A DNA stretch of 32,000 bases from Promethearchaeum syntrophicum (GCF_008000775.2 NZ_CP042905.2:150001-182000), one strand, 5' to 3'; positions 2-20,932 are shown, numbered from the stretch's first letter. Translations and numbers: made by a program. The notes: generated by a model from the letters alone, not told the origin.

Positions 2-973
2 TTAGTCCCTGATGCTCATATTGGAAAAGGAATGGGTAATAAATTTCTTTCTGATTTATCACCTGCAGATGTATTATTACATATTATAGATATTTCTGGA
101 AGTTTAGACGCTGAAGGGCAAGAAATTGATGAAGGATCGAGAGATCCAATAGAAGATATAAAGTTTTTAGAGAAAGAAATAAATTTTTGGTTTAGAGATA
201 TTCTTATAAGAAAAGATTGGCAGAAATTTGTACGGAAAATTGAACAAGAAAAATTAAGCTTTGTTGATGTGTTTTATGAACGAATGGCAGGGATTTCTGT
301 AAAAAAAGACCATATCTATTTAGCAATGAAGGAGTCTAATTTAGATTTTGAACATTTAACAGTTTGGAGTGATGAAGATATTTTACATTTTGCAACGAAA
401 CTTCGTGAAATTTCAAAACCAATTATTATTATAGCAAATAAAGTTGATAAACCGAAAGGTGAAGAACTTTTAAAAAAGATCTCAAAGATTTATAAAAATA
501 CTATCCCATGTAGTGCTTTAGCAGAACTTTGGCTAAGAAAATTTGCTGAAAAAGGAATGATTGAATATATGCCCGGGGACTCACATTTCAAGATTATTGA
601 TAAGAACGGGTTATCTTCCCAAGAAATAGGTGCCCTAAAGAATATTGAAGATAAAATATTAAATAAATTTGGGAGTTCTGGTATTCAAGAAATAATAAAT
701 TATGCAGTATTTAATGTTTTAAAACAAATAGTGGTCTATCCTGTATATGATCTTAATACATATTCTGATAAAGATGGAAATGTGTTACCAGATGCGCATC
801 TTATTGAGAGTGGTACTAAATTAAAAGATTTTGTTGATGAAAAAATTCATTCTGATTTAGCAAAAAACTTTATTTATGGAATAAATGGACGTACAAAAAT
901 GAGATTGGGTGAATCATATATTTTACAAAATCATGATATAGTTAGAATTGTGTCAGCTTCAAAAGGAAAATAG
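2..973 (+). CDS. Obg-family GTPase (Ygr210/YchF/DRG-like) with C-terminal TGS-like domain; 5' end lies outside the window
   Basis: The frame is open from position 2 (LVPDAHIGKGMGNKFLSDL, an Obg-family switch segment), so the ATG at 32 is internal. It has an NKVD G4 motif (IIIANKVDK) and a C-terminal beta-grasp/TGS-like tail (GESYILQNHDIVRIVS). Confidence 0.75.
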   Translation, partial: LVPDAHIGKGMGNKFLSDLSPADVLLHIIDISGSLDAEGQEIDEGSRDPIEDIKFLEKEINFWFRDILIRKDWQKFVRKIEQEKLSFVDVFYERMAGISVKKDHIYLAMKESNLDFEHLTVWSDEDILHFATKLREISKPIIIIANKVDKPKGEELLKKISKIYKNTIPCSALAELWLRKFAEKGMIEYMPGDSHFKIIDKNGLSSQEIGALKNIEDKILNKFGSSGIQEIINYAVFNVLKQIVVYPVYDLNTYSDKDGNVLPDAHLIESGTKLKDFVDEKIHSDLAKNFIYGINGRTKMRLGESYILQNHDIVRIVSASKGK

Positions 974-1239: not shown

Positions 1240-1312
1240 TGGACCCAGGGGAATTTGAATCCCCGACCCCCTGAGTGCAAGTCAGGTGCTCTACCAACTG
1301 AGCCATGGGCCC
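1240..1312 (-). tRNA. tRNA-Ala (anticodon UGC)
   Basis: The reverse complement reads GGGCCCATGGCTCAGTTGGTAGAGCACCTGACTTGCACTCAGGGGGTCGGGGATTCAAATTCCCCTGGGTCCA. The acceptor stem is 7 bp and includes the G3:U70 alanine identity pair. The anticodon loop is CUUGCAC and the T-loop is TTCAAAT. No CCA is encoded. It lies about 120 nt downstream of the 16S 3' end on the same strand. Confidence 0.93.
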
Positions 1313-1434
1313 TCTAAATCAAAAATTATTTGTAATTAAAAAATATTACAAAATTATTTACATTTAATATTATATCAAAAAGAACTTAAAAAAGAAAAAG
1401 AAGATCTATGGGCAAATGCCCATAGAAATGTTGT

Positions 1435-2930
<1,496 letters not shown>

Positions 2931-3564: not shown

Positions 3565-4560
3565 ATGCTCCAAGATGAAATAAAGAGAAATCTTGAGAAA
3601 ATTAAAGCAACAAGAGGTGTTGAAAATGTAGTTTTAACACAAAGAGATGGAAATCCAATTCATTATACTGGAATTTGGTTTTCAAAAGAAGAGATTTTTA
3701 GCATATCTGCAGCTACTTCTGCTATTTATAATTGTGGGATTGAACTTCATAAGGATAATTTGAAATATATTTTAATTGAGGGCAATAAAGCAAAAATTTT
3801 ATTATTTCCACTTAAGAATTACGGAAGTACAACTCTAAATAAAATAATCCGAGCACAAGATTTACAAGGAAACGATAACGATTTTTTTGTTGCGATAACT
3901 GCTCAAAATATGATCAATCTAGGAGGTATATTTCTCAAAACTCGTAATAGTTTAATTGAAATCAAAAAATCTCTCATTCTTTCTGGAGAATCATTCAAAC
4001 CTCCTTTAAGACATTTTTCAAAAAAAAATATTGATGAAATTATTGGATCTTCAAATGTTAGAGATGATATAAAAATTAGTGAAAATGTGCAATTATATTC
4101 CCTAAATATCCCTGAAATGATATATAAAGAATTAGATAATATTTTACGGGATCTTGGGAATCAGACCCTTGATCTCGTAAAATCATATATTGCCATTGAA
4201 GGAGGGTTTATTGTTTCTAGTTATCCCAAATTAAAAATTGATCAACATAAATTGGATTCTGAAGCTACTATGGGATATTCGCTTTTTAAAACAGCAGATA
4301 AATGTGCGTGGTTATTAAAAAAAATGCGAGTAAACTCAATTTTATTAGAATGTGTTGATAAATTTCAATTTATTAATAAAGTAGATTCAAATATTTTTTC
4401 CATTGAAATTGGTAAAGGGAGACAGAAACTAGGATTACTTCGATTAATTATACCAAGATATTGTAAAAAAATCACATCCATATTGGAAGAAGCTCGAAAA
4501 TACGAGATAAAACCTGTAAATCTAAATTTAGAAAAAATGTTTACAGAGTTAATTTTTTAA
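3565..4560 (+). CDS. Tandem Roadblock/LC7 (MglB-like) domain protein, 331 aa
   Basis: There are two Roadblock-like modules. The N-terminal one reads LEKIKATRGVENVVLTQRDGNPIHYTG...ISAATSAIYNCG...LKYILIEGNKAKILLFPL. The C-terminal one reads DLVKSYIAIEGGFIVSSYP...EATMGYSLFKTADKCAWLLK...SILLECVDKFQFINKV. An SD-like AGGTGAT lies 10 nt upstream of the ATG. This is the first gene of an operon that ends in an MglA-type GTPase. Confidence 0.7.
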   Translation: MLQDEIKRNLEKIKATRGVENVVLTQRDGNPIHYTGIWFSKEEIFSISAATSAIYNCGIELHKDNLKYILIEGNKAKILLFPLKNYGSTTLNKIIRAQDLQGNDNDFFVAITAQNMINLGGIFLKTRNSLIEIKKSLILSGESFKPPLRHFSKKNIDEIIGSSNVRDDIKISENVQLYSLNIPEMIYKELDNILRDLGNQTLDLVKSYIAIEGGFIVSSYPKLKIDQHKLDSEATMGYSLFKTADKCAWLLKKMRVNSILLECVDKFQFINKVDSNIFSIEIGKGRQKLGLLRLIIPRYCKKITSILEEARKYEIKPVNLNLEKMFTELIF

Positions 4561-4576
4561 AAAAGGAGATAATTTT

Positions 4577-5476
4577 ATGAATCTTATTGAATTATTTACA
4601 AACTCAAAAAATGAAGACATAGCATTAATCCTACATTGTCTTTTAGATAGAATTCCAATAGTAATTATTAGTTCAAATGAAGAAGAGGTTGAAAATATGA
4701 TGAATGGATTAACTAATTTGATATCTTTTCGCAATATCATGATATTTTATACAGATTTTGTTAATCTTGATGACTATAACAATTTATTAGAATCAGAAGA
4801 ATATGACATGGAAGTTCAAAGAAATATTTTTCTCTGTTATCCATTTGCTCTTGAAAAAGCTATTGAAATTTTTGAAGTTTTTAATTTTTGGATTATTGGC
4901 TGTACAAATACTGTTGAAAACAGGCCATGCTTAAACGCATTATTCAATAGATTAACTAAAAAAAATTCTCAATTTCTTCTAATAAATATACTTGAAGATT
5001 CCTTAGAAACTAGAATTGAAGGGATTAAAGGTGATAAAATAGATATTTCATTTGAAAAATCCTTATATCAGAATGCAATTAATCACACCGAAGTTGCAAT
5101 TGAAAAAATGAAAAGAATTATCTCTAAAAGGATTAACTCAAAAAAAATTTTGATTGAGGAATATGAAAATATCATGAATTTCTATTTTGAAGAGATGGAA
5201 TTAAAGGAAAACATTATAAAGAAAGAAATTACAGATTTTTATTTAGGTTCTAAAAGAACTTTGAATATTTTAACTCGTATAAAGAATTTAGAACATTTAG
5301 GATATTCAACAAGCATTTCTAGTAAGACTTTATTTTCAACTATTGCATATAATCAATCCTCGATCGAAAGAATTCTTAATTTTATAATGCAAGAGTGGAA
5401 TATGAATTATTATGCTTTATTGAATTCAAAAAAATCATCAAATTTTACAGATACATTTGAAAGTCTATGGGGTTAA
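4577..5476 (+). CDS. Hypothetical 299-aa protein between the MglB-like and MglA-like genes; the N-terminal segment resembles a core-DENN signature (weak)
   Basis: It is a long ORF in stop-rich AT DNA. AGGAG lies 8 nt upstream of the ATG. There is a 16-nt gap to the roadblock gene, and the 3' end overlaps the GTPase ORF. LFTNSKNEDIALILHCLLDRIPIVIISS...NLDDY resembles the DENN pattern LF..LS..NIL.L..ALLLERRII..SS...LLDY. The C-terminal half looks helical or coiled. Confidence 0.6.
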   Translation: MNLIELFTNSKNEDIALILHCLLDRIPIVIISSNEEEVENMMNGLTNLISFRNIMIFYTDFVNLDDYNNLLESEEYDMEVQRNIFLCYPFALEKAIEIFEVFNFWIIGCTNTVENRPCLNALFNRLTKKNSQFLLINILEDSLETRIEGIKGDKIDISFEKSLYQNAINHTEVAIEKMKRIISKRINSKKILIEEYENIMNFYFEEMELKENIIKKEITDFYLGSKRTLNILTRIKNLEHLGYSTSISSKTLFSTIAYNQSSIERILNFIMQEWNMNYYALLNSKKSSNFTDTFESLWG

Positions 5477-5480
5477 AAAA

Positions 5481-6053
5481 ATGATTGTAAATTATAAATC
5501 AAAATTGATTCAAATTAAAATTGTATATTACGGTTGTGCATTATCAGGGAAAACAACTAGTTTAAAAAGCTTATTTAATAAATTTGGAAAAAATAGAGAA
5601 CTTACATCCATTGAAACAACAACTGGAAGAACACTATTTTTTGATTTCGGGACATTGCAGATGGTTGGTGGGGATTGGATGGTAAAAATTTTAATGTATT
5701 CTGCAACTGGGCAGGATTTTTATTCATCTACAAGACCAGCAACATTATCTGGAACTGATGGGATTGTTTTTGTTATTGATTCCCAAAGAAAATATTTTGA
5801 CGATAATTATCAATCGTGGAAAGAACTACATTATTATTTTGAAGAAAATATTTTCAAAATTCCTATTGTTTTATCTTTAAATAAACGAGATTTGCCTGAT
5901 GTTATTGAAATTGATGATGTAATAACCAAATATGAATTAAATAAATTTAAAACTACCCAGATAATAGAAACTATTGCACTTTCAGGGGAAGGTGTGACAA
6001 AAACGTTCAAAAGTATAATGTCTTTGATATTTCCTTCAATTAATATTAGGTAG
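5481..6053 (+). CDS. mglA: MglA-family small Ras-like GTPase
   Basis: MIVNYKSKLIQIKIVYYGCALSGKTTSL...TTGRTLFFDF...YSATGQDFY...TDGIVFVIDSQ...NKRDLP is near-collinear with Myxococcus MglA ([26 protein letters not shown] / DRTLFFDF / TVPGQ / NKRDLP). The ORF is open from an ATG at 5457. I prefer 5481 because it aligns with the MglA N-terminus. Confidence 0.88.
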   Translation: MIVNYKSKLIQIKIVYYGCALSGKTTSLKSLFNKFGKNRELTSIETTTGRTLFFDFGTLQMVGGDWMVKILMYSATGQDFYSSTRPATLSGTDGIVFVIDSQRKYFDDNYQSWKELHYYFEENIFKIPIVLSLNKRDLPDVIEIDDVITKYELNKFKTTQIIETIALSGEGVTKTFKSIMSLIFPSINIR

Positions 6054-6059
6054 ATTAAA

Positions 6060-6434
6060 TTGGCACAAAATATTGAATTTTTATCAATTTTTTTTTTTGA
6101 AATTGATAGAAAAGTCATTTTAATCGCATTCATTTTTCTAATTTTGATAGTTTTAAGTTTTTTTCTTCTAATACTACCTGATTTTCTGCCAAAATTGATG
6201 ATTTTAACAATAGAAATAGGATTTATTTTTATAATTTTTCAAACTAGTAAAGATGTTTCATATAGAACAAGTTTCTTTTTAGATTTAATGCAAAATCTCC
6301 AAGGAATTACTGAAATCTCTTTAGAATATCTTGATTTAATCATAAGATTCGAAATTCAAATAAAAGCATTTAAATCATTGAGTTTCATGTTATTAGCAAT
6401 AAATTTTTTTTTTACATTGTTAGAGCTATTTTAA
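6060..6434 (+). CDS. Small hydrophobic (about 3 TM) protein, hypothetical
   Basis: The TTG start lies 6 nt after the GTPase stop, on the same strand. The protein has strongly hydrophobic segments (ILIAFIFLILIVLSFFLLIL, LMILTIEIGFIFIIF, LSFMLLAINFFFTLL). No family was recognised. Confidence 0.35.
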   Translation: MAQNIEFLSIFFFEIDRKVILIAFIFLILIVLSFFLLILPDFLPKLMILTIEIGFIFIIFQTSKDVSYRTSFFLDLMQNLQGITEISLEYLDLIIRFEIQIKAFKSLSFMLLAINFFFTLLELF

Positions 6435-6443
6435 AATATATAA

Positions 6444-6926
6444 CTATAATTTAATTTTCTGTATCAGAAATTCGCAATATTGATTCTCTTTGTTATTATT
6501 AGAGCATTTGATTTCTGATATCTTTACATTCTTCATGATATATTCTCCAAAACCATTTAAAATTCCAAGAACGTAGGTACAAATAAATTTTTTCTCTCGT
6601 TTTTCAAATTTTGAAATATTATAATATAATTTAATCGATATTTCTTCATCACTAAAAATTCCTAAAGTAAATTTTCCCCAACCGGTTAAACTTGTCATTT
6701 TTAGAAAATTATTTGAAAATCTTTTTAGATCTTTAGTTTCATATTGAGAATCACATTTTTCAGCAAGAAATCTACCGAATTTCTTTCCTAAATATTGAAA
6801 AATAGATTTTGAGCCAGTATTAAAAATTGAACCAAGAGAAGAAATAATATCCACCGGAACTAGTGAAACTTTTTCCTCACAAAAGAATAAACCATCTTCT
6901 TTATTAATAAGCTCTTTCATCTTCAT
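6444..6926 (-). CDS. V4R-domain protein (COG1719-like; Bet3/TRAPP-related fold)
   Basis: The pattern GKKFGRFLAEK...TGWGKFTL...ISIKLYYN...FICTYVLGILNGFGEYIMKNVKISEIKCSNNNKENQYCEFLIQ matches the V4R layout (G-x-G core, C-x3-G-x2-G, E-x-KC, YCEF). It overlaps the upstream gene by 4 nt (ATGA). Confidence 0.7.
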   Translation of the reverse strand: MKMKELINKEDGLFFCEEKVSLVPVDIISSLGSIFNTGSKSIFQYLGKKFGRFLAEKCDSQYETKDLKRFSNNFLKMTSLTGWGKFTLGIFSDEEISIKLYYNISKFEKREKKFICTYVLGILNGFGEYIMKNVKISEIKCSNNNKENQYCEFLIQKIKL

Positions 6927-9230: not shown

Positions 9231-10259
9231 TTGTTCCAATCCCAATATATTATTAATCAGAACGATTCAAACATTTGTCCAGAATGTGAGTCAAAATTGA
9301 TTCAAAATGGACATGAAAATGTTTGTGAAAATTGTGGTCTAGTAATTGATTCTGTTTTATTTGTTGATAGCTTTCAATTCAATGATACTATTAATTCAGA
9401 TTTATCTACAGGAGATCAATTTGTATCTGTTGGAAAAACTATCGATAATATCTGTACTTTAGGAAGTCATATCGATTTTTTCTCAACAAAAGTATTTTGT
9501 GATTATAAACGAAAAACTATTTCTTCAAATCTTCAAAAGAAATTCAGAAAATTAAAATCGTACACTTTTCCTATAAAAATAAAAAACCATGAAACAGATT
9601 ATAGAGTTTTAAGGATATTAAATAGTATTATTAAATATTTAGGGTTGTCTTCAATAGTAAAGAATCGCGCTGCCTATTATTATCAATCAATAAAACGTCG
9701 ATCTCCATCGATTCGAAATCATATTTCGTTAATTGGTTTTTGTATTTTTTACGCTTCGAGAGAGTTTTGCTCAAATGCTCCAGTTAGTATTCGTGAAATT
9801 TGTAATATATTTAACATAAAAGGTCATAGGGTTAGTCCCAGATTAATTATAAGAGATAGTATTGATTATCAAAAATACCTAAATAAAAAAAATCATCCAC
9901 ATAGAAGTGAAGATTATATCTCAAGATTTATCAATTCAATTGTAAGCTCACCTGAAGTTGTAAATAGAATGAAGAAAAAACAATCTATTTGGACAAGAGC
10001 AATTTATAAAAACCTTTTAACAAATAAATGTAATTTTATAATTGAAAGCATTAATAAAGGGAGAAAGCGGTCATGGAACCCTTTTATTCTTGCTGGTGCA
10101 ACAGTTTATTGTGCAGATAAATTGCTTGCAAAAGAATATGATACAAAATCAATATTAACTCAAAAAATTGCTTCAAATGCAATGAATATTGCAGAATATT
10201 CAATCCGAGACCATTATGTTAAAATTCTAAAACCACTATTTGATTCTATAAACCTATAA
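9231..10259 (+). CDS. tfb: Transcription factor B (TFIIB homologue), divergent paralogue
   Basis: It has an N-terminal Zn ribbon (CPECESKLIQNGHENVCENCGLVID) followed by about 200 aa with cyclin-fold-like repeats (RAAYYYQSI...LIGFCIFYASRE; ILAGATVYCADKL...IASNAMNIAEYSIRDHY). The start is TTG, with an SD-like AGTGAT 6 nt upstream. There is no in-frame ATG near the N-terminus. Confidence 0.75.
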   Translation: MFQSQYIINQNDSNICPECESKLIQNGHENVCENCGLVIDSVLFVDSFQFNDTINSDLSTGDQFVSVGKTIDNICTLGSHIDFFSTKVFCDYKRKTISSNLQKKFRKLKSYTFPIKIKNHETDYRVLRILNSIIKYLGLSSIVKNRAAYYYQSIKRRSPSIRNHISLIGFCIFYASREFCSNAPVSIREICNIFNIKGHRVSPRLIIRDSIDYQKYLNKKNHPHRSEDYISRFINSIVSSPEVVNRMKKKQSIWTRAIYKNLLTNKCNFIIESINKGRKRSWNPFILAGATVYCADKLLAKEYDTKSILTQKIASNAMNIAEYSIRDHYVKILKPLFDSINL

Positions 10260-12406: not shown

Positions 12407-14170
12407 ATGCTTAGATGGAAATTTTATTTGATGAAAAAACAGGCTTTATTTCTAATAATTAATTTCTTAATAATCTTTCAGTGTTTTCCGAATACAAATG
12501 CCTATTTACTATTTGAACCTTATCCAAATATTGAAACTGATAAACAGAATTACTTTTTGGATGAAAATATCTCAATTAATGCATCTTGGAATATTTATAA
12601 TTCTATAGATGAAGAAACTTATATAAATATTTTTTTCGTCGACAATGATCCTGAGATCTTAACTCCAAGTTGGGTTATAAATAATTCTCTTCATGTTATT
12701 GAATGTTCTTTTGAAAATGGAATCAATAATTTTCAAACTTCTATTCAAAGTTCCATTTTTTCTTTAAATTCCACTCAATTTCCTATTAATTTATGGGTTG
12801 TTTTAATAATTTTTAACATGCAATATGAGATATTGATAAATGACAATATTTTTTGGAATTGGACGCAAATTAGTTTAAATAAATATAATCCGATATTTTC
12901 TAATGATTTAGAAAACCAAACAAATCTGGAATATAAGGAAAATTATTTTATAAACAATTCAATAATTGCGCAACAAAATAGTTCAAAAATTTACTCGGGT
13001 GGTTCTGTTTCAGCAACTTTGAAATTAGATTCATTGTTAATTGATATAGAAGAATATATTATTTCAGACAATGGAAGTATTTTAATAGATATAAATGATT
13101 TTGATATAAGTAATATTGGTTTATATAACCTTTCTTTAATAATTTTAGAGAATGAACTATTTTTTGGTAGAGAATTACATCAGATTATAAATATTACCGA
13201 AAAAAACATTAAAATATCTGCTATGAATAATAGAAATTGTATATATAATTCTTCAGTCGACTTTTTTCTAATGGAAATTCAATTATTGGATAGAAATAAC
13301 ATCACAGTAGTTCTAGACGACCCATTTTGGATCATTGAGACAGATTTTATTCAAAAAGATTCACTTTTTTTGAATAATTGCTACTATTTTAAATTTATTT
13401 ATCCAGAACATTCAGGAAAATATTTCGTTAACATATCTGCATTCAAATATGGATATCATTTCAATTCGTCTTATTTTACATTTGAATTTAATGAATTTCC
13501 TATTGCAGATTTTTTCTCATCATCAAATGAATTAATTGTAGGGCAAACAGCTCATTTTTTTTATTCCGGAACAGAATTTGATGAAAATTTATTTTTTCTA
13601 TGGGATTTTGGAGATAAATTTGGAACTGCTAATGAAATAAACCCCTACTATATATATGAAATTCCAGGGATTTACACAGTTATTCTTTCTATTTATGATA
13701 TTAATGGAGATAGAGTAGTTGTTGAAAAGAATAATTATATCAAAGTTTTTGAAGATACTGTTCCCGAAGCGAATTTTACATTTAATACTAATTCTTTAAT
13801 TAAAAATGAAGAGATTCAATTCGTTTTTACTGGAACTTCAGGAAATGGATTAACCTCTTTTATTTGGGATTTTGGAGATAATTTTGGAATTTCTCATGAA
13901 AAGGATCCAATATATTCATACAAAGTTCCAGGAAGATATACTGTCATTTTGATAGTAATAGATCTAGATGGAGATAATAATACATTTATTCAAAATATAC
14001 GAATTTTAGAACATTCAGATAATTTAAATCTTAACGGTGTTGTTGAAAACAGGATATTTATATTAATTTTAATTTTCACTTTCTTAATTGGTTCAATTTT
14101 TATCGTATATACAAGAATTAAACAAAGAAATATTTCAAAAAAGATTCCATTAAAATCATTAACATTGTAA
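12407..14170 (+). CDS. Secreted, C-terminally membrane-anchored surface protein with two PKD domains
   Basis: It has an N-terminal signal-like segment (MKKQALFLIINFLIIFQCFPNTNA; the alternative start is at 12431). The two PKD signatures are FLWDFGDKFGTANEINPYYIYEIPGIYTVILSIYDINGD and FIWDFGDNFGISHEKDPIYSYKVPGRYTVILIVIDLDGD. The corresponding DNA repeat tgggattttggagataa[a/t]tttggaa occurs at 13601 and 13865, 264 nt (88 aa) apart. The C-terminus is a TM helix plus basic tail. Confidence 0.72.
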   Translation: MLRWKFYLMKKQALFLIINFLIIFQCFPNTNAYLLFEPYPNIETDKQNYFLDENISINASWNIYNSIDEETYINIFFVDNDPEILTPSWVINNSLHVIECSFENGINNFQTSIQSSIFSLNSTQFPINLWVVLIIFNMQYEILINDNIFWNWTQISLNKYNPIFSNDLENQTNLEYKENYFINNSIIAQQNSSKIYSGGSVSATLKLDSLLIDIEEYIISDNGSILIDINDFDISNIGLYNLSLIILENELFFGRELHQIINITEKNIKISAMNNRNCIYNSSVDFFLMEIQLLDRNNITVVLDDPFWIIETDFIQKDSLFLNNCYYFKFIYPEHSGKYFVNISAFKYGYHFNSSYFTFEFNEFPIADFFSSSNELIVGQTAHFFYSGTEFDENLFFLWDFGDKFGTANEINPYYIYEIPGIYTVILSIYDINGDRVVVEKNNYIKVFEDTVPEANFTFNTNSLIKNEEIQFVFTGTSGNGLTSFIWDFGDNFGISHEKDPIYSYKVPGRYTVILIVIDLDGDNNTFIQNIRILEHSDNLNLNGVVENRIFILILIFTFLIGSIFIVYTRIKQRNISKKIPLKSLTL

Positions 14171-14564
14171 TATTATAGATAATATTAGAGCATTTATGGA
14201 TTAAATACCCGCTTTTTTGTATGTAATCATTGAGACATCAGACTTTTCGGGATACTAAAGCGAAATCTCGACAATTTAATGCTTTTTTTCCCTTTCTTCA
14301 AGGATCTTAGTCGTTTCAATCTAGGCAAAGAAAATTTCTCATGAATTCGATTCAATCATAGATTTTTCTTAGATAGATACGTTTCTATTCTAAGGTTTGA
14401 TTTTCATCAAGATTATAATCTCCTTGGTCGAGAATAAGAAGCGAGGTTCCTCATTGTTAAAAAACAACGTAAGTCTCTTAATCCTAAATGCATATATTCT
14501 TAAAATTTGATTATAGAAAAATTTTTCGTTGTTTAAATTATTTCAAACTTAAGATTATTGAACA

Positions 14565-14771
14565 ATGTATAAAAAAAAATTCTTTCAGGAATTTCTACGT
14601 AATCTAAAGAAATTTATCAAAGATGAAGAGGGGAGTTCTACTATTGAATCTGGCCTATTGATTGCATTATCAATGATATTATTCCTATTATTAATAAGTA
14701 TTGCTCAAAATATTTATACATGGATTGAATCAACAGTTTTCGATGTATTGAATTTTGATTTTTTTAGATAA
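14565..14771 (+). CDS. Flp/Fap-type pilin-like protein (class III signal peptide), 68 aa
   Basis: FLRNLKKFIKDEEG|SSTIESGLLIALSMILFLLLISIA follows the Flp prepilin pattern (basic leader, DE.G cleavage glycine, Glu at +5, then a hydrophobic helix). It lies in a locus with a TadV/FlaK-like peptidase, a secretion ATPase and a TadC/FlaJ-like protein. Confidence 0.6.
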   Translation: MYKKKFFQEFLRNLKKFIKDEEGSSTIESGLLIALSMILFLLLISIAQNIYTWIESTVFDVLNFDFFR

Positions 14772-14861
14772 TGATAAATCAATAAATCATCAGTCCCTTG
14801 ATATTTTATTTTTATCCGACAAATTTCTTATTTAGATTTTAATTTTGGGGAGGAAAGATAA

Positions 14862-16070
14862 TTGACAATAAATTACTTGGAAGATCAATATTGTAGGAAT
14901 AGCTTATTTTTGAATGAAAAATATTTTGAGGTGAATTACCTTCCTGATCAAATAAAACATCGAGAACAAGAATTAATAATGCTCTCAAAGATATTTATTA
15001 AATTGATAGAAACACCTTTTCGAATATCAAGGAAAGTTATGATTCATGGTGATGTTGGAATTGGAAAAACTGCAATAACAAGAACATTTGGAAGAATGCT
15101 ATTGCTTTCTGCAAAAAAAAGAAATATCAAAATTAAGTATGTACATATAAATTGCAGAATAGAAAAATCTAATTTTAAAATTTTGAATCAAGTTCTAAGA
15201 AAATTAAATATCCCAGTTCCAATTCGTGGTTTTTCTCCTCAGGATTTAATAACAATGCTTCAAGATTACCTTATAAAAAATGAAATTTATTTGGTTTTAG
15301 TACTTGATGAATTAAATCATATTCAAAATTTTGATACAAATTTTGATATTATTTATTCTTTAACTCGGATGAATGACTCAGATAATGGTAAAAATTTTTT
15401 GTCTTTAATAGTTATCGTTCGAGATATTACGCTTTTGAGGAATTTAGATGAATCTACTATAAGTACTCTTCAAGGAAATATTCTAACTTTAAAAAAATAC
15501 ACTATTAATCAAATTGTAGATATTTTAAATTTCAGAATTGATAAAGGATTAAAAAAAGGGATTATTACAGAATCAAATGTACATTTAATTGCTGAAAAAA
15601 TATCAGATTCTGGAGATATAAGGAAAGGATTAAATATTATTAGAAATGCCGTTAAAATCACAGAAGCTAAAGACAAATCTCATGTATCTGGTAATGAATT
15701 ACAAATTGCTTTTAATAATTTAATACCTAGTTTACAAGACGATGCTTTAAGTATCCTTACCTATCATATGACTTTGCTTCTATACGTTATTACTGTTTTA
15801 TTGATGGAGAGAAAAGAGAAAAGGGTGATATTTTCAGAGATTCAAAAAAAATATGAAGAAATTTGTTTCTTATATCAAGAAACTCCTAAAAAGAGCACAC
15901 AAATTTGGAATAACCTCCAAAGTCTTAAGAATTATTCTTTAATTAAAATTAAGACTATTTCAAAGAAGGTAAAGGGAAGAAAATCATATTGTTCAATCAA
16001 CTCAATCCCTATTAATATTTTAAATGAAGAATTAAACCAAAAAATAAGAAATTTTCTCTCAACGAGATAG
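14862..16070 (+). CDS. cdc6: Orc1/Cdc6-family AAA+ ATPase with C-terminal winged helix
   Basis: YLPDQIKHREQEL opens the family-typical N-terminus. Walker A is HGDVGIGKT and Walker B is LVLVLDELNHI. The lid and winged-helix tail read LTYHMTLLLYVI...IFSEIQKKYEEIC...LQSLKNYSLIKIK...GRKSYCSI. The start is TTG, preceded by a strong SD (GGGGAGG) 8 nt upstream. Confidence 0.85.
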   Translation: MTINYLEDQYCRNSLFLNEKYFEVNYLPDQIKHREQELIMLSKIFIKLIETPFRISRKVMIHGDVGIGKTAITRTFGRMLLLSAKKRNIKIKYVHINCRIEKSNFKILNQVLRKLNIPVPIRGFSPQDLITMLQDYLIKNEIYLVLVLDELNHIQNFDTNFDIIYSLTRMNDSDNGKNFLSLIVIVRDITLLRNLDESTISTLQGNILTLKKYTINQIVDILNFRIDKGLKKGIITESNVHLIAEKISDSGDIRKGLNIIRNAVKITEAKDKSHVSGNELQIAFNNLIPSLQDDALSILTYHMTLLLYVITVLLMERKEKRVIFSEIQKKYEEICFLYQETPKKSTQIWNNLQSLKNYSLIKIKTISKKVKGRKSYCSINSIPINILNEELNQKIRNFLSTR

Positions 16071-16077
16071 ATCGAAA

Positions 16078-16380
16078 ATGGAAAAGACCATATTACCTTC
16101 AGAAATTGTAAATATTGAAGATATATTTTCTTCAAGGGGTAGAGCTAAAATTATTAAGTTACTCGCTTTAAGAGATGAACTAAATATTTCGAAAATTGTG
16201 GATTTAACAGGATTGAATCATTTAAGTGTAAAAACACATTTAATTTTCTTCAAAGGAATAAATTTTGTTCAAGAAAAAAAATTTGGGAGAATTAGAATAT
16301 ATAGATTTAAAACTGAAAATCTTAAAGCTAAAGCGTTAAAAAACTTAATTCAATTTTGGGAATATGAGAATGGATTATAA
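16078..16380 (+). CDS. Small ArsR-like winged-helix-turn-helix protein
   Basis: IFSSRGRAKIIKLLALRDELNISKIVDLTGLNHLSVKTHLIFFKGINFVQEKKFGRIRIYRFK has the helix-turn-helix plus wing pattern of ArsR/SmtB-type regulators. It starts 7 nt after the cdc6-like stop and overlaps the peptidase gene by 17 nt. Confidence 0.65.
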   Translation: MEKTILPSEIVNIEDIFSSRGRAKIIKLLALRDELNISKIVDLTGLNHLSVKTHLIFFKGINFVQEKKFGRIRIYRFKTENLKAKALKNLIQFWEYENGL

Positions 16381-16855
16381 AATTTCTGTAAAAATCATCA
16401 TTCTTATTATTTTTCTGGCAATCTATGCAATAAATGACATTGTGAATCAAAAAGTATCAAATTTTTTTATTTTAAGTGCATGTTCTATCAATTTATTTTT
16501 GAATTTTCTTTTTGATGATAACATTTGGGGATCTTCTTTAATATATACCCCTCTTTTTATAATTTCATTATATTATTGGAAAAAGGGATATATCGGAGGA
16601 GGAGATCTAAAATCTATTATGGTAGTTCTATATTTTATAAATTTTGAATATTCAGTATCAATTTGCTTATTAATTGATAAAAAAACACCAGATATTATTG
16701 AGCTTTTTATTTTTTTTTTCCTTTTATTAGCAATAAAAAAGCCAAATCTAATATCAATATTATTTGAAAACCCAAATATTTATAAAATTAAATCAGAAAA
16801 ATACTCAATATTACCCTATTTTTTTATTTCTTATCTATTGGCTTTAATATTTTAA
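16364..16855 (+). CDS. Prepilin/preflagellin peptidase, A24 family (short TadV/CpaA/FlaK-like form)
   Basis: This is a polytopic membrane protein with the two catalytic aspartates in their usual contexts: AINDIVNQK (D25) and GYIGGGDLKS (D81, the GxGD[V/L]K motif). Confidence 0.72.
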   Translation: MRMDYKISVKIIILIIFLAIYAINDIVNQKVSNFFILSACSINLFLNFLFDDNIWGSSLIYTPLFIISLYYWKKGYIGGGDLKSIMVVLYFINFEYSVSICLLIDKKTPDIIELFIFFFLLLAIKKPNLISILFENPNIYKIKSEKYSILPYFFISYLLALIF

Positions 16856-16892: not shown

Positions 16893-18965
16893 ATGCGAAA
16901 AAAAAAATTCAAACCAATAGTTATACTTGATGATGCAAAAGAAAAAAATACACTGAAAATCAATTGTAAAGATTGTGAAGGTAAAAAAAACATAGAAAAA
17001 TGCTTAACATGCATTCTATTTACACTAAATGAAATCAATCCTGTTAAATTTTCTGATATCTCATTAAATTCATCACTTTCTTTAAAAACTGAAGAAAAAC
17101 ACTTAATATCTCTCCTATATGTTCTTTATTCCAGTTTTAAAAAAAAATTTTCATTAATTTCTTGTTCAATTGATAGGGAAACTTGTCAGAAAGAGAAAAT
17201 AAATAATATTTTTTTAAAAAAATTTAATGAAAAGGGATTTATTGATATATTGGAGTTTTTTTTCAGTCAACCAATAATAGAAGGCCCATCTTCAAGCATA
17301 TCTTCACCTTGTTATCTATGTTTAAAAAGAATTACTAAAAAACTTAGATTTTTTCAAAGAATTTATAAAAATTCCCATTTCTATCAATATATTTTATCAA
17401 AATATGGTATTTTAAAAATTTCAACAGATTTCTTCCGCAATCTTTTTCCCACTTTAAAGGAGAATCGTAATCATAAACCTTTTTTAATAAATATTGAAAA
17501 ATTCGATAAGCAAGAAGAATATCAGTATTTTAATCAATTGTTTGATGTAATAATTTCTAATAAAAAAAATTGTCCAGAAAGAAGGTATTTGGTAAAATAT
17601 AATATTCCAAAAAAAATATTAGATAGTTCAGAAATGCTACTAAATTTCTTTAAAAATAAATTAAATGATTTAAATTTTACAAATTTCACGAATTTAGGAA
17701 AAAAAATTTGTTATTTAAAAGATCAAATACAATCCTTGGTTCCAAATTATATCCCTGATTTGGATTTAAATGATTCAAAAAAAGTCTCTTTCATTCTTAC
17801 GATTAAATACCTTAATATTGAGAAAATTTTTCCATTATTAACTGATCCTTTTATAGAAGAAATTTTCCAGGATTCAATTGAGAATAAAATTTATATTAAT
17901 CACAATAAATATGGTCGTTGCTTGACTCATATTCAATTGGATATTAATGAATTTGAATCTTTAAAAACTCACTTGATATTAGAAAGTAAACAGAGATTAG
18001 ATGAACAACACCCAAGTTTAGTTCATTTTATGAATAATTCTTTCTTTCATTCTCGCTTTTCAATCGATATAGCACCTTCACATTGGAAAAATATTGCTTT
18101 AGATATAAGAAAATTGAACAAAATGGTTTATACACTAAGTGATCTTATTAAACTGAGAACTTTATCAATTGAAATGGCAAGTTTCTTAGTATTTTGTATT
18201 TTATTCAGAAAAAATATTACAATCGTTGGTGAAGTTAATTCTGGTAAAACAACATTCCTAAATGCTTTGGATTTGTATGCTCCTAAAGAATTTAGGAAGA
18301 TTTACGTTGAAGAAACAATTGAAACATTAGAATTCCCTACTGATTCAGCCCATCAATTGAAATATGTAGTTGATTCCGATTATAATGATGAAAATAACAG
18401 TAAGGAAAAAGAAATTTATAAGTTATTACATAGATCTGGGGATTTAATTATTTTAGGAGAGATTTTAAATAAATTAGAAACTGTAGCTCTTTTCCATTGC
18501 CTAAGTGCAGGATTAAGGGGATTTCAAACAACCCACGCATCTTCAATCCAAGGTTTAATTAATAGATGGTTAGTCCATTTTCAAATTGATAAAACTTGCT
18601 TAAATGATCTGGACGTTATAGTTATGATGAGAAAAATTGGAAATAGAAGAGTTGTTCAATCAATTAATGAAATAACTTATAACAGTCAAAGTGAAAAAGT
18701 TGAAATCTTTTCATTATTTAAATATAATCCAGTAAATGAGGAATGGGATTTACCTTTTCAGATAAAAAAATCAAAAATACTCAAGTCAATTAATAAAATA
18801 ATTAATTTTTCTCAAGATAAATATATTCGATTAATCTCTCAATTGAACAAAATTTTTATCGATGAAATTCGCCAAGATTTCCCTGATAACCGTAAGATTT
18901 TCCTTCCTTTAAAAAAAATCTATCATAATATTAAATCCATTGATCAAAATATAGGAGGGATTTAG
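16893..18965 (+). CDS. Type II/IV secretion-family ATPase (TadA/CpaF/FlaI-like) with a long N-terminal extension, 690 aa
   Basis: LTDPFIEEIFQD...IYINHNKYG is the conserved N-domain opener. Walker A is VGEVNSGKTTFLNAL, Walker B is GDLIILGEI, and the His box is LRGFQTTHASS. About 310 aa precede the conserved part, including CKDCEGKKNIEKCLTC (CxxC-x8-CxxC). Confidence 0.82.
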   Translation: MRKKKFKPIVILDDAKEKNTLKINCKDCEGKKNIEKCLTCILFTLNEINPVKFSDISLNSSLSLKTEEKHLISLLYVLYSSFKKKFSLISCSIDRETCQKEKINNIFLKKFNEKGFIDILEFFFSQPIIEGPSSSISSPCYLCLKRITKKLRFFQRIYKNSHFYQYILSKYGILKISTDFFRNLFPTLKENRNHKPFLINIEKFDKQEEYQYFNQLFDVIISNKKNCPERRYLVKYNIPKKILDSSEMLLNFFKNKLNDLNFTNFTNLGKKICYLKDQIQSLVPNYIPDLDLNDSKKVSFILTIKYLNIEKIFPLLTDPFIEEIFQDSIENKIYINHNKYGRCLTHIQLDINEFESLKTHLILESKQRLDEQHPSLVHFMNNSFFHSRFSIDIAPSHWKNIALDIRKLNKMVYTLSDLIKLRTLSIEMASFLVFCILFRKNITIVGEVNSGKTTFLNALDLYAPKEFRKIYVEETIETLEFPTDSAHQLKYVVDSDYNDENNSKEKEIYKLLHRSGDLIILGEILNKLETVALFHCLSAGLRGFQTTHASSIQGLINRWLVHFQIDKTCLNDLDVIVMMRKIGNRRVVQSINEITYNSQSEKVEIFSLFKYNPVNEEWDLPFQIKKSKILKSINKIINFSQDKYIRLISQLNKIFIDEIRQDFPDNRKIFLPLKKIYHNIKSIDQNIGGI

Positions 18966-18998: not shown

Positions 18999-19388
18999 AT
19001 GACATTTGGATTAACGATGTTTTTAATCATTTTCCAATTTCTAAATCCTATATTTTTGATGTTTACTCCTCTATATACCGAAGATAAACAAGATTTAGAC
19101 TATATTCATTCAGATTTGGAAAATTTTGCAAATTCGATAACAGTATTTAATAATAATAATGATCAAGAAGATTTTTTCTTAAATTTTACTTATCCTGGAA
19201 AGATCTCTGTTATTACTGACCACTACAACGAAGATATAACTACTTTGCTCTTTAGATTTTCTAATAATCGAACTATTTATAAGGAATTTCAAGTTTCTAG
19301 CGAATTTAACATTGAAATCGAAAATATATTTATTAAACAATACAACATCCGATTTTTAAATAATTCGAAGTTTATAATTTTTATCTAA
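18999..19388 (+). CDS. Hypothetical N-terminally membrane-anchored protein in the pilus locus
   Basis: It has an N-terminal hydrophobic helix (MTFGLTMFLIIFQFLNPIFLMF) followed by a soluble, beta-rich-looking domain. It sits between the ATPase and the platform-like gene. No motif was recognised, and there is no clear class III signal. Confidence 0.4.
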   Translation: MTFGLTMFLIIFQFLNPIFLMFTPLYTEDKQDLDYIHSDLENFANSITVFNNNNDQEDFFLNFTYPGKISVITDHYNEDITTLLFRFSNNRTIYKEFQVSSEFNIEIENIFIKQYNIRFLNNSKFIIFI

Positions 19389-19396
19389 AGAGATTA

Positions 19397-20932
19397 GTGA
19401 ATCTAATGACTTGGAAAAGCGAATTTCTTCAAAAATTTACATTTTTATGTCAGAAATTTCATACTTCAATTGAATTCATGAAAGAGCTGGAAGAAGATAT
19501 TAGTAATTATGATGAAATAATTTTACATGAGTTTAGTTTATCTTACAATCAAAGAAGGAAAGGAGCAATTGCAATTACACTTGTTTATTTATTTTTAATT
19601 AACCTTGTATACATTATTTTTTCATTTTCTTTGTCTTTTTTTTTCATTTTCATTACTCTAGGTCTCATGATATATATATATTTACTTGATATCCATAAGA
19701 ATTTTGTCCAATTTAAAGAAAATTCTAACACTAACAAATATCATTTTTTATCATTACAAATGAATATAATTTTATTGAGTATCAAAGAAATGGAAGATAA
19801 AAACTTAATTCTAATGGAGATTTTAGAACAAGAACCCGAAATTGGAATTAATATTCGAAAAGTTTTATCTAAAATTAATTTGGGACATAATATCAAGAAC
19901 AATTTGAAAAATATAATTTTTTACTCCCCTTCATTTAACGTATATTTTAGAGATCTCCTAGAATCGAATTATAATTTTGAAATTATTGAAAATATTGATT
20001 CTTTCCAGAATTATTATGAAAACAAATTTGAGATTTTTATTAATTCATTAGACACTCGTTTAAGTCTCTTCTTTTTCTTCAACCTTTTTTTTCCAATTGG
20101 TTTTCTTTTTATGTTTTCCATTAATTCTCTAACATATGAGCAAGTCCTAATTGCAATATTCTTGTTTATTCTAATTCAAAAAATTTTTATCCGTAAAATT
20201 TTAAATGAAAAAATTCAACTTATTGGAGGGATTAATTCTCTAAAAAGTGAGGATAAAAAATTTTTAAAAAGTTTTTTAAAGTTTTTTTATCATTTTTCTA
20301 ATTATTTGTCTTGGAATCCTCCTGAACTTGCACTTTATCAATCAATTTTAAAATTGTCACCGAAAGAAAAATCAAAATTGAATCTTGATAAATATAATTT
20401 TAGTTTAGATTTCAAATCTTTAAACCAATTTCTAAAAACAATATTTCTTAATTTTCAATCATCTTCAGCTAAAATCTTTTATACCGTGATTAAGAGGATT
20501 TTTCGTTTAAATTCTTCTCAAAGTCCTAATCTTTTTAGAGATATGTCAAAAATTATTCACAAACATATGGAATTGGGTGACAAACAAGAAATTGCCTATA
20601 ATAGTTCTTACATCAAGGTTATAATCTTTAAAATTCTATTAGTTTTCATTTTAGGAATTTTAACACCTATAATTTATAGATTTCAAGAAATATCTCAATT
20701 GCTTTATAATTTTAATTATTTGGCAGAAATTATCGATAATATGTATAGTTTAGATAATTATTTCTTGACAATTTTTATATCTTTAATATTTATTTTTATT
20801 TCAATCCAATCGTTTAATGAAGTTTACAATTTTAAGGATAGTAAGAAACTGGATTATTTCTTAATTCTGATGTTTTTTATTTGTTTAATTACTTCAACCT
20901 TTTTGTGGAATTCACTAATATTTTTCTCATAA
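19397..20932 (+). CDS. Polytopic membrane protein, probable TadB/TadC/FlaJ-like pilus platform protein
   Basis: The protein is 511 aa, with hydrophobic clusters separated by two cytoplasmic helical regions, which is the bipartite layout expected of T2SS-F/FlaJ-type proteins. It lies immediately downstream of the secretion ATPase. The call rests mostly on context. The start is GTG at 19397 or ATG at 19406. Confidence 0.5.
   Translation: MNLMTWKSEFLQKFTFLCQKFHTSIEFMKELEEDISNYDEIILHEFSLSYNQRRKGAIAITLVYLFLINLVYIIFSFSLSFFFIFITLGLMIYIYLLDIHKNFVQFKENSNTNKYHFLSLQMNIILLSIKEMEDKNLILMEILEQEPEIGINIRKVLSKINLGHNIKNNLKNIIFYSPSFNVYFRDLLESNYNFEIIENIDSFQNYYENKFEIFINSLDTRLSLFFFFNLFFPIGFLFMFSINSLTYEQVLIAIFLFILIQKIFIRKILNEKIQLIGGINSLKSEDKKFLKSFLKFFYHFSNYLSWNPPELALYQSILKLSPKEKSKLNLDKYNFSLDFKSLNQFLKTIFLNFQSSSAKIFYTVIKRIFRLNSSQSPNLFRDMSKIIHKHMELGDKQEIAYNSSYIKVIIFKILLVFILGILTPIIYRFQEISQLLYNFNYLAEIIDNMYSLDNYFLTIFISLIFIFISIQSFNEVYNFKDSKKLDYFLILMFFICLITSTFLWNSLIFFS

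Follow-up and report, generated by a model that had tools for sequence, protein, structure and literature searches.

Does an Orc1/Cdc6 gene that lies among type IV filament genes serve chromosome replication, the control of its neighbours, or both? The question is raised by a 32,000-nt stretch of DNA from Promethearchaeum syntrophicum MK-D1 (hereafter the window, in which all positions are counted; loci of relatives carry identifiers of the form L0xx). Here, a 402-aa Orc1/Cdc6 AAA+ protein, probably of the Orc1-2 lineage (14862-16070, plus strand; start TTG, stop TAG at 16068-16070; DSAG12_00687 by inference) is encoded just ahead of its partner, a 100-aa ArsR-type winged helix-turn-helix (wHTH) protein (DSAG12_00688; 16078-16380, plus strand), and the two genes stand between those of a predicted prepilin and a prepilin peptidase. 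A preliminary description of this DNA had offered, as one of two readings, a repurposed Orc1/Cdc6 paralogue tied to the pilus operon. Our most robust new result is broader: an Orc1-wHTH module that is Asgard-wide among the lineages sampled, and to which a peptidase gene is joined in Loki-type genomes.

The Orc1-wHTH pair across archaea

We gathered relatives of the locus by scanning species-representative genomes with an Orc1 alignment, by collecting the contigs of Orc1 homologues and of wHTH homologues, and by scanning metagenomes with the pilus ATPase of the window. All gathered loci were screened with hidden Markov models (HMMs) built from the window proteins. This gave 55 distinct pairs with the wHTH gene immediately after Orc1; the spacing ranges from -20 to +9 nt and amounts to a 4-nt overlap in 39 pairs. 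The pair is present in every Asgard lineage sampled; its hosts are Loki-type genomes, Hermod/Hod-labelled metagenome-assembled genomes (MAGs), Jord, Freya, Heimdallarchaeaceae, 'Asgardarchaeia', Hel/Hel-like genomes and one Bathyarchaeota MAG. No feature of the locus is more conserved than this coupling of Orc1 with the wHTH gene.

Outside the Loki-type genomes, the neighbours of the pair are of another kind. They include PolD DP1 and DP2, which adjoin the Orc1 orthologue in one Asgard lineage, a pseudouridine synthase with RFC, and EF-2 with enolase and RFC, and pilus genes are absent beside the pair in the Hel, Hod, Jord, Freya, 'Asgardarchaeia' and Bathy loci. The two genes form a translationally coupled module of great age and wide distribution, which in most lineages stands among replication and translation genes. 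The idea of a paralogue repurposed for the pilus does not survive this comparison, since the pair occurs in all sampled Asgard lineages and in the Bathyarchaeota MAG, usually without pilus genes nearby. In the Thermoplasmatota loci that carry a related Orc1, the HMM screen found no wHTH gene next to it. These Thermoplasmatota Orc1 genes (L031-L047) are divergently paired, at about 100 nt upstream, with the gene of a protein of about 400 aa that resembles, by eye, the primase small subunit, with a putative GINS-like gene beyond.

The wHTH partner is predicted to adopt an ArsR/SmtB-type fold with a C-terminal helix suited to dimerisation (AlphaFold2 model, predicted local distance difference test score 89.5). 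The top PDB folds in a Foldseek search were PagR, HlyU, CadC and CzrA (TM-scores of about 0.65-0.72), and AspA was also recovered. Pfam HTH_5 is matched by 19 of the 21 wHTH family members, with the window protein below threshold (15.9 versus 22 bits), and the NCBIfam ArsR/SmtB match of the window protein (E 1.1e-7) is under its cut-off. No Cys occurs anywhere in the 100-aa sequence, which therefore lacks the Cys-based metal-sensing sites of ArsR-type sensors; this check covered Cys sites only. The protein thus shares its winged-helix fold with the ArsR/SmtB repressors and with AspA, the ArsR-like centromere binder of plasmid pNOB8, but differs from them in having no Cys and in being always encoded right after an Orc1/Cdc6 gene. 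The haloarchaeal origin-associated Oap/Arv proteins were considered as analogues and rejected, OapA being a small GTPase.

Pilus genes beside the pair in Loki-type genomes

The gene upstream of Orc1 encodes a predicted 68-aa prepilin, Flp/Epd-like and bearing a class-III signal peptide (14565-14771, plus strand; stop TAA at 14769-14771). Its predicted cleavage site follows the Gly of GSSTIE, which places Glu at +5. This motif supports the label of pilin given in the preliminary description; the Pfam family Flp_Fap offers less, being the commonest Pfam match among the prepilin orthologues (4 of 8) while remaining sub-threshold in all (best E 0.023). An alignment of the 8 orthologues keeps a G-(G/S)-S-x-(L/I)-E motif, cleaved after its first Gly, followed by a hydrophobic helix, and the prepilin HMM finds homologues in L060, L056, L085, L109 and L113.

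Downstream of the pair lies the gene of a short A24-family class-III signal (prepilin) peptidase of 163 aa (16364-16855, plus strand), which belongs to its family by score (PF01478, 32.3 bits versus a cut-off of 26.5) and carries the GGGD motif with an upstream Asp. It is followed by a FlaI/TadA-type filament assembly ATPase with a Cys-rich N-terminal extension (16893-18965, plus strand), which matches PF00437 (T2SSE; 38.2 bits versus 24.9), has FlaI as its best NCBIfam model (E 6.8e-31), and also matches VirB11 and TrbB weakly. Next comes a 129-aa protein with an N-terminal hydrophobic segment (p129; 18999-19388, plus strand), for which neither Pfam nor NCBIfam gave a family match; its HMM finds counterparts in all Loki-type loci, always between the ATPase and a large membrane protein. 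The latter (TM511; 19397-20932, plus strand) is a polytopic protein of 511 aa that always follows the ATPase and p129 and is presumed, from gene position alone, to be the platform protein (TadC/FlaJ-like). It has no Pfam match, a profile of its 8 orthologues found no match in the PDB, and one of the 8 gave a weak T2SSF match (E 0.09). The set resembles archaeal Epd/Tad(Flp)-type pili in its FlaI/TadA-like ATPase, its short A24 peptidase, its predicted, very short Flp-like pilin without a globular domain and its TFIIB-like neighbour, and differs from them in a presumed platform protein that is unrecognisable by sequence.

The coordinates and spacings reported earlier for this locus are all correct to the base. 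The spacer between the pilin and Orc1 genes measures 90 nt, the gap between Orc1 and wHTH 7 nt, and the wHTH and peptidase open reading frames (ORFs) overlap by 17 nt, or by 11 nt should translation in fact begin at the in-frame ATG at 16370, as in the public gene call. The strong Shine-Dalgarno-like sequence ascribed to Orc1 is GGGGAGG, read from the sequence at 14847-14853 on the plus strand, 8 nt before the TTG start. The gap before the ATPase gene is 37 nt and holds a run of seven T.

Comparison of gene orders ('>' for plus-strand and '<' for minus-strand genes) showed which of these neighbours travel with the pair. The order of the window, pilin> Orc1> wHTH> peptidase> ATPase> p129> TM511> (type A), is found also in L. 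ossiferum, Harpocratesius and three MAGs, so that the cdc6-wHTH-peptidase-ATPase succession first noticed in P. syntrophicum recurs, within the full seven-gene order, in five other species-level genomes. Most Loki-type genomes have type B, Orc1> wHTH> peptidase> ... V4R< TM511< p129< ATPase< L3>. L109 reads Orc1> wHTH> peptidase> pilin< ATPase> p129> TM511>, and L085 and L113 have the type B order with a pilin gene that replaces the L3 operon beside the ATPase. In L060 (Heimdallarchaeaceae), two membrane proteins< and ATPase< stand next to pilin> Orc1> wHTH> in an otherwise different context. In L135, TFB-like> ATPase> pilin> are separated from the following Orc1> wHTH> by 6.4 kb that hold POR, EF-2 and Lrp genes. 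L056 has pilin< TM511<, at about 2 kb on the upstream side of an Orc1 gene beside which the HMM screen detected no wHTH gene.

About 41 of the 55 pairs are followed, in the same direction and at -29 to +138 nt after the wHTH gene, by a peptidase-like ORF (146-265 aa, G-x-x-D). These are all Loki-type (arrangements A, B, L109 and L085/L113; PF01478 was checked for a few), and only in Loki-type genomes does a prepilin peptidase directly follow the wHTH gene. The Loki-specific link is thus a peptidase gene that is co-directional with the wHTH gene and nearly gapless after it, with a minimal Flp/Epd-like filament locus alongside. The arrangement is far more than chance. The earlier argument from operon-like spacing holds for Orc1, wHTH and peptidase, whose spacing is conserved, but not for the whole locus, because the ATPase and TM511 genes lie on the strand opposite to Orc1 in most Loki relatives; the conserved co-directional unit is Orc1-wHTH-peptidase only.

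How much the remaining pilus genes add depends on the background synteny. The ATPase, p129 and TM511 genes stay adjacent to the pair through at least four Loki gene orders, while the L3 operon and the V4R gene shift. Metagenomic contigs that carry the ATPase-p129-TM511 trio with enough flank all carry the pair (27 loci), a count inflated by the fact that most of these contigs represent one syntenic block (TFB-like, p27, S17e, Orc1, pilus genes, L3-L4-L23), in which unrelated genes are equally 'linked' to Orc1. The independent evidence for a pilus link is narrower: across the internal breakpoints the pilus genes stay with the pair, and the L3 operon and V4R gene do not. More distant pilus loci with a TFB-like gene (L122, L123, L126, L127, L128) show no pair within the available flank.

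This background is what one would expect if Orc1 were a chromosomal initiator near an unrecognised origin and the pilus genes its neutral neighbours, held in a slowly rearranging core block (S17e, RNase P RNA, L3-L4-L23) and tightly spaced by genome compaction. The block from the TFB-like gene to L23 is indeed syntenic across most Loki genomes. Such neutrality sits poorly with the several breakpoints inside the block, after which the pilus genes are still always with the pair, and with the peptidase start, which overlaps or abuts the wHTH stop in many genomes.

Type B loci encode a 124-aa protein and a V4R/MsvR-like protein of 160 aa between the peptidase and TM511 (L005:4459-5364, L015:12305-13201), and P. 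syntrophicum has the V4R homologue and a 124-aa gene, presumed to correspond to the first of the two, about 8 kb upstream (6060-6926); these shifted genes mark one rearrangement between the type A and type B orders. In Harpocratesius repetitus, a group II intron-type reverse transcriptase (RVT_N and RVT_1; L003:17650-18867, minus strand) lies between TM511 and the L23 operon. An inverted repeat of 31 nt, 84% complementary, has its arms in the wHTH gene (16202-16232) and the ATPase gene (17019-17049) and so brackets the peptidase gene. We considered an invertible switch and set the idea aside, since conservation of the repeat was lacking in four relatives; chance probably explains it.

The flanks of the locus bear on yet another origin for it, as the remnant of an integrated plasmid or conjugative element with its own Orc1/Cdc6, wHTH regulator and secretion/conjugation-type ATPase. 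Orc1/Cdc6 proteins are often encoded by archaeal plasmids and proviruses, 298 plasmid records match the window Orc1, and the VirB11 and TrbB matches of the pilus ATPase point, weakly, the same way. The plasmid matches, however, are haloarchaeal and only about 25% identical. Ribosomal-protein, RNase P RNA and tRNA genes flank the locus, which is syntenic across the whole class; its GC content equals that of the flanking DNA, and neither an integrase nor repeats bound it. A mobile-element origin, already disfavoured, is very improbable.

Two surface or regulatory genes stand farther upstream in the window. A PKD-domain surface protein with a C-terminal membrane anchor (DSAG12_00685; 12407-14170, plus strand; Pfam PKD_4, E 3.5e-20) has homologues that precede the locus in L002, L003 and L007, and inspection by eye showed its N-terminal motif also in type B loci, in the protein encoded ahead of Orc1. 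A proteome study did not detect DSAG12_00685, which has been suggested as a candidate for the S-layer (PMC11284389). On the periphery of the neighbourhood is a divergent TFIIB-like paralogue with a Zn ribbon and cyclin repeats (9231-10259, plus strand), which aligns over its full length to the TFIIB model NF001658 at 43 bits (cut-off 384) and matches Pfam Zn_Ribbon_TF and TFIIB weakly. In Loki genomes this gene is about 5 kb from Orc1. Homologues scoring 43-77 bits lie directly beside the pilus ATPase in L060 (2184-3224), L122, L123, L126, L127, L128 and L135 (8680-9720). Among the regulators predicted for archaeal type IV pilus loci, TFIIB homologues are already known to be the most frequent (PMC4858521).

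Further genes lie near the start of the window. An archaeal 16S rRNA gene (1240-2928, minus strand) is followed by tRNA-Ala, with the 23S rRNA gene absent there, so the rRNA genes appear unlinked; the next gene, on the other strand, encodes an Obg/YchF-like GTPase (32-973, plus strand). A Roadblock/LC7-domain protein, a 299-aa protein without assignment and an Arf-family small GTPase are encoded in a row at 3565-6053 (plus strand), a trio found also in L006. This is an Asgard-type small-GTPase cluster and not the haloarchaeal ArvABC/Oap operon.

Lineage of the Orc1 protein and the search for an origin

We then asked what kind of Orc1/Cdc6 protein the pair contains. The window protein, 100% identical to a protein of P. 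syntrophicum, is a member of the archaeal Orc1/Cdc6 family (TIGR02928, 217.8 bits versus a cut-off of 181.3), with Pfam Cdc6_lid and Cdc6_C, the C-terminal winged helix, above threshold. Walker A (G63-T70), Walker B (D149-E150) and the sensor-2 residue R254 are invariant in an alignment of 11 orthologues, and the Walker motifs and winged helix are thus as intact as had been claimed. Its recognition helix reads K343-K344-S-T346-Q (KKSTQIW) and its wing K-G372-R373; the initiator-type Arg pair (TQRRVSD) is missing. Such an RR arrangement in the recognition helix is found in initiators that contact origin recognition box (ORB) DNA (PMC9738581), and an RRxT motif is conserved in the recognition helix of Orc1-2, whose homologue is PDB 1W5S (PMC12490963).

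Before assigning a class, we calibrated the NCBIfam models with reference proteins of solved structure (PDB). NF001625 was the top model for class I proteins (Sso Orc1-1, 488 bits; Ape ORC1, 452 bits) and NF001623 for Pae Cdc6 (284 bits) and Ape ORC2 (227 bits). The window Orc1 scored 250 bits with NF001623 (equivalog cut-off 311) and 158.8 bits with NF001625 (cut-off 501). Its orthologues from Jord (L028), Heimdall (L060) and 'Asgardarchaeia' (L061), which are less composition-biased, reached 376, 335 and 353 bits with NF001623, all above 311. Neighbour-joining (NJ) bootstraps placed the window Orc1 group outside the class I clade (Sso Orc1-1, Sso Orc1-3, Ape ORC1 and two metagenomic proteins) in 100 of 100 replicates, and a clade of this group with Pae Cdc6 and Thermoplasmatota proteins had an NJ support of only 37%. 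The best match among solved structures was Pyrobaculum aerophilum (Pae) Cdc6 (PDB 1FNN), at 125.5 bits for the window Orc1 and 201.8 bits for the Jord orthologue; the two proteins have an (H/S)(T/S)Q-x-W motif of the recognition helix in common, although their sequences are distantly related. We know of no wHTH partner or pilus neighbourhood for Pae Cdc6.

By these sequence comparisons, the window Orc1 lies outside the classical Orc1-1 clade and most probably belongs on the Orc1-2 side of the family. With the classical Orc1-1/Cdc6-1 initiators (Sso Orc1-1, Ape ORC1 and the Pyrococcus-type cdc6-polD cluster) it shares the TIGR02928 family and, in one Asgard lineage, a PolD-adjacent orthologue; it differs from them in its NF001625 score (159 of 501 bits), its lack of the RR pair, its position outside the class I clade and the lack of ORB repeats. 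The earlier reading of a paralogue other than the chromosomal initiator was in this respect well placed. The assignment nevertheless leaves the function unsettled, as the Orc1-2 lineage supplies the only Orc1 of the Thermoproteales: these have lost Orc1-1 (Raymann et al., PMC3914693), which puts Pae Cdc6 in the Orc1-2 cluster. Orc1-2 proteins evolve faster, and in Sulfolobus and Haloferax they do not coincide with origins (PMC3914693).

If the window Orc1 is an initiator, an origin might adjoin it. The candidate was the 394-nt spacer upstream of the pilin gene (14171-14564), in which the three genera of P. syntrophicum, L. ossiferum and Harpocratesius share 79% identity, their proteins being only 53-64% identical. 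We rejected it, as the spacer encodes RNase P RNA on the minus strand (14194-14488), and this gene accounts for the conservation. The match to RF00373 is full length (1-288 of 288; 78.9 bits, E 4.7e-22) and lies just under the gathering score of 84, which is why a default Rfam scan missed it.

Repeat searches found no repeat families or ORB-like boxes in 14100-14900 or elsewhere in the window, and the mini-ORB consensus TTCCANNGGAAA was no more frequent there than expected by chance, a search that boxes of other sequence could escape. Upstream of the orthologues, ORB-like repeats were likewise absent from the Hel-like, 'Asgardarchaeia', Heimdall, Jord and Bathy loci. The preliminary description had seen neither ORB-like boxes nor an unwinding element by Orc1; our analysis agrees, and for the boxes the negative now extends from the window to five other lineages.

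A second Orc1/Cdc6 family occurs in related genomes and is 24% identical to the window Orc1 (L053:2281-3465, L055:5180-6364, L066:7001-8197). It is unusually conserved, with 75-80% identity across Loki-, Thor- and Hermod-labelled MAGs among the best 120 matches listed. A gene for a tyrosine recombinase (Xer/integrase-like) precedes it in L066, and an ORF of similar size does so in L055. Repeat searches around this second family found no repeats above chance. This family may represent the true initiator, or else an element that many genomes share. A homologue search with the window Orc1 listed no second named protein of P. syntrophicum, at a sensitivity too low to reveal such a paralogue.

These results complete the case for and against an initiator whose pilus neighbours are merely inherited. 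It gains from the orthologues that pass the NCBIfam equivalog 'ORC1-type DNA replication protein' (NF001623, 335-376 bits versus 311), from the PolD DP1/DP2 neighbours in one lineage, which recall the classical cdc6-polD origin cluster, and from the Thermoproteales, whose only Orc1 is an Orc1-2-lineage protein (PMC3914693). It loses by the lack of repeated ORB-like boxes or inverted repeats in the flanking spacers of seven lineages and by the occupation of the only long spacer by RNase P RNA. Together with the breakpoints and the peptidase overlap described above, this makes it an unlikely account of the locus.

Expression, regulation and the proposed tie to the pilus

The explanation that we prefer, though tentatively, is that the module has a primary role independent of the pilus, be it in initiation, in global regulation or in both, and that the Loki pilus genes are tied to the module by shared transcription. 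Most likely, the Orc1-wHTH module does housekeeping work: it would bind origins as an initiator, regulate globally as a DNA-binding factor, or do both. Its small wHTH dimer would probably act as a cofactor of Orc1 or as an autorepressor of the operon. The link to the pilus would then work via expression, with the peptidase transcribed together with or downstream of Orc1-wHTH. In the family of P. syntrophicum, the single-strand order of all seven genes seems to be the product of local inversions, and the ATPase and membrane protein would there probably be transcribed with or after Orc1-wHTH as well. The capacity for pilin processing and assembly would thus follow the Orc1 operon, and Orc1 itself need not take part in pilus assembly.

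Several sequence elements upstream of Orc1 bear on this proposal. The pilin-Orc1 spacers of six type A loci share a T-rich tract followed by an invariant CGACAA; in the window this element spans 14804-14827 on the plus strand, with T-runs at 14804-14813 that look like a TATA box or a terminator and CCGACAAATTTC at 14816-14827. The window has just one further CCGACAA, within the 16S rRNA gene. CCGAC(A/G)WAA lies 133-202 nt upstream of Orc1 in 11 type B loci, with copies at L015:9800 and L018:973 among others, and type B loci also have TACTCTGTAT beside a TATA box 55-71 nt upstream, as at L015:9937. A motif comparison found TACTCTGTAT and CCGACAWAA upstream of Orc1 only, and neither at the ATPase or pilin promoters. 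In L015, a palindrome TACTCT-N4-AGAGTA was seen by eye upstream of Orc1, which might be the kind of site bound by an ArsR-type dimer. The heptamer TACTCTG agrees with TACTCWS, the 3' end of the damage-response consensus published for S. islandicus, an agreement that may be a coincidence.

A number of points weigh against our preferred explanation. Co-transcription is read from gene spacing alone, and the run of seven T in the 37-nt gap before the ATPase gene could be a terminator. The T-rich tract and CGACAA suggest that Orc1 has a promoter or operator of its own. No origin signature adjoins Orc1 in any lineage searched, which weakens the initiator part of the explanation, and Orc1-2 is not coincident with an origin in Sulfolobus or Haloferax (PMC3914693). 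The true initiator might instead be the second and far more conserved Orc1 family, found in related Loki, Thor and Hermod genomes. Finally, within Loki, S17e and p27 are as syntenic with Orc1 as the pilus genes are, so that adjacency is weak evidence of function.

Sulfolobales Orc1-2 binds and activates the promoters of upsA and upsE (type IV pilus), tfb3 and cedA1 after DNA damage (PMC6061795), and this activation of ups pili makes direct regulation a serious rival. By analogy, the window Orc1, with or without the wHTH protein, would be a transcription factor that controls its own pilus locus, with the TFIIB paralogue playing the part of TFB3, and the pilus would be formed on induction, to serve, for instance, cell contact or DNA exchange. 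Besides this precedent, the probable Orc1-2 lineage of the protein speaks for such a role, as do K343-K344-S-T346, which resemble the RRxT of Orc1-2, and the lack of ORB repeats by Orc1. So do the gene orders: the pilus genes lie by the pair through at least four Loki arrangements, are adjacent to it in Heimdall L060 and are near in L135 and L056; the peptidase is within the operon-like unit of Orc1 and wHTH; and TFIIB-like paralogues accompany the pilus ATPase family in many loci. A regulator dedicated to the pilus is harder to reconcile with the pairs of Hel, Hod, Jord, Freya, 'Asgardarchaeia' and Bathy genomes, which have no pilus genes, or with the five TFB-associated pilus loci noted above (L122, L123, L126, L127, L128), which have no pair in the available sequence. 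Nor did the motif comparison reveal any motif common to the Orc1 promoter and the ATPase or pilin promoters. An ANTTTC-type hexamer does occur about 35 nt upstream of Orc1 (AAATTTC), as this model might predict, but in a single copy that is expected by chance in DNA of 25% GC. We therefore regard direct regulation as possible, if somewhat doubtful.

The likeness to Sulfolobales Orc1-2 extends to the domain plan (AAA+, initiator-specific motif, winged helix), probably the side of the family tree, a basic pair with Thr in the recognition helix and a basic-G-R wing (PMC6061795, PMC9738581, PMC12490963). The Sulfolobales protein is a non-initiator and a global regulator of the DNA-damage response, whose tie to the ups pilus and tfb3 is regulatory and at a distance; the Asgard protein may be an initiator. 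To our knowledge, orc1-2 is not encoded in the Sulfolobales ups locus, and we know of no wHTH partner described for Sulfolobales Orc1-2. The Asgard neighbourhood may thus unite an Orc1-2-type ATPase and its wHTH partner, a divergent TFB paralogue and a type IV filament in a parallel to the Sulfolobales response to damage and for DNA exchange, an analogy to which we give little credence.

The preliminary description knew of no Orc1/Cdc6-pilus association in type IV filament systems. This calls for a qualification, since Sulfolobales Orc1-2 activates upsA and upsE (PMC6061795), and it stands insofar as that tie is regulatory and not a shared locus. The text of a census of type IV pili (PMC4858521) contains none of the terms 'Orc1', 'Cdc6', 'wHTH', 'ArsR' and 'replication'. 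A 2026 preprint on archaeal type IV filament machineries, according to which such filaments are nearly absent from Asgard archaea, mentions neither Orc1, Cdc6 nor HTH (bioRxiv 10.64898/2026.04.22.720090). A 2025 study of the Asgard replisome mentions neither a wHTH partner nor pili, and the isolation paper of P. syntrophicum mentions neither pili nor Cdc6. Altogether, the finding is real and conserved, and no prior description of it was found in the searchable literature. It is best classed with two known kinds: Orc1-2-type proteins that have a link to type IV pili, and type IV pilus loci that encode transcription factors of their own.

Among known prokaryotes, none are more closely related to eukaryotes than the Asgard archaea, whose replication initiation, cell-cycle control and surface structures have barely been studied experimentally. 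In the two cultured Loki genera, Promethearchaeum and Lokiarchaeum, the Orc1-wHTH module is physically fused to the peptidase of what is apparently their only Flp/Epd-like filament system, and the locus is an Asgard type IV filament locus of a sort that a recent census largely missed. If the parallel with Sulfolobales were true, the transcriptional role of Orc1-2 and its control of surface filaments would predate the TACK/Asgard split, and the Loki pilus would be Orc1-controlled, possibly gated by damage or the cell cycle, and used for cell contact or DNA exchange. For the cultured organisms, this provides hypotheses: that Orc1 is an initiator or a regulator, that the wHTH protein binds to Orc1 or to its promoter, and that the pilus is gated by the cell cycle or by DNA damage.

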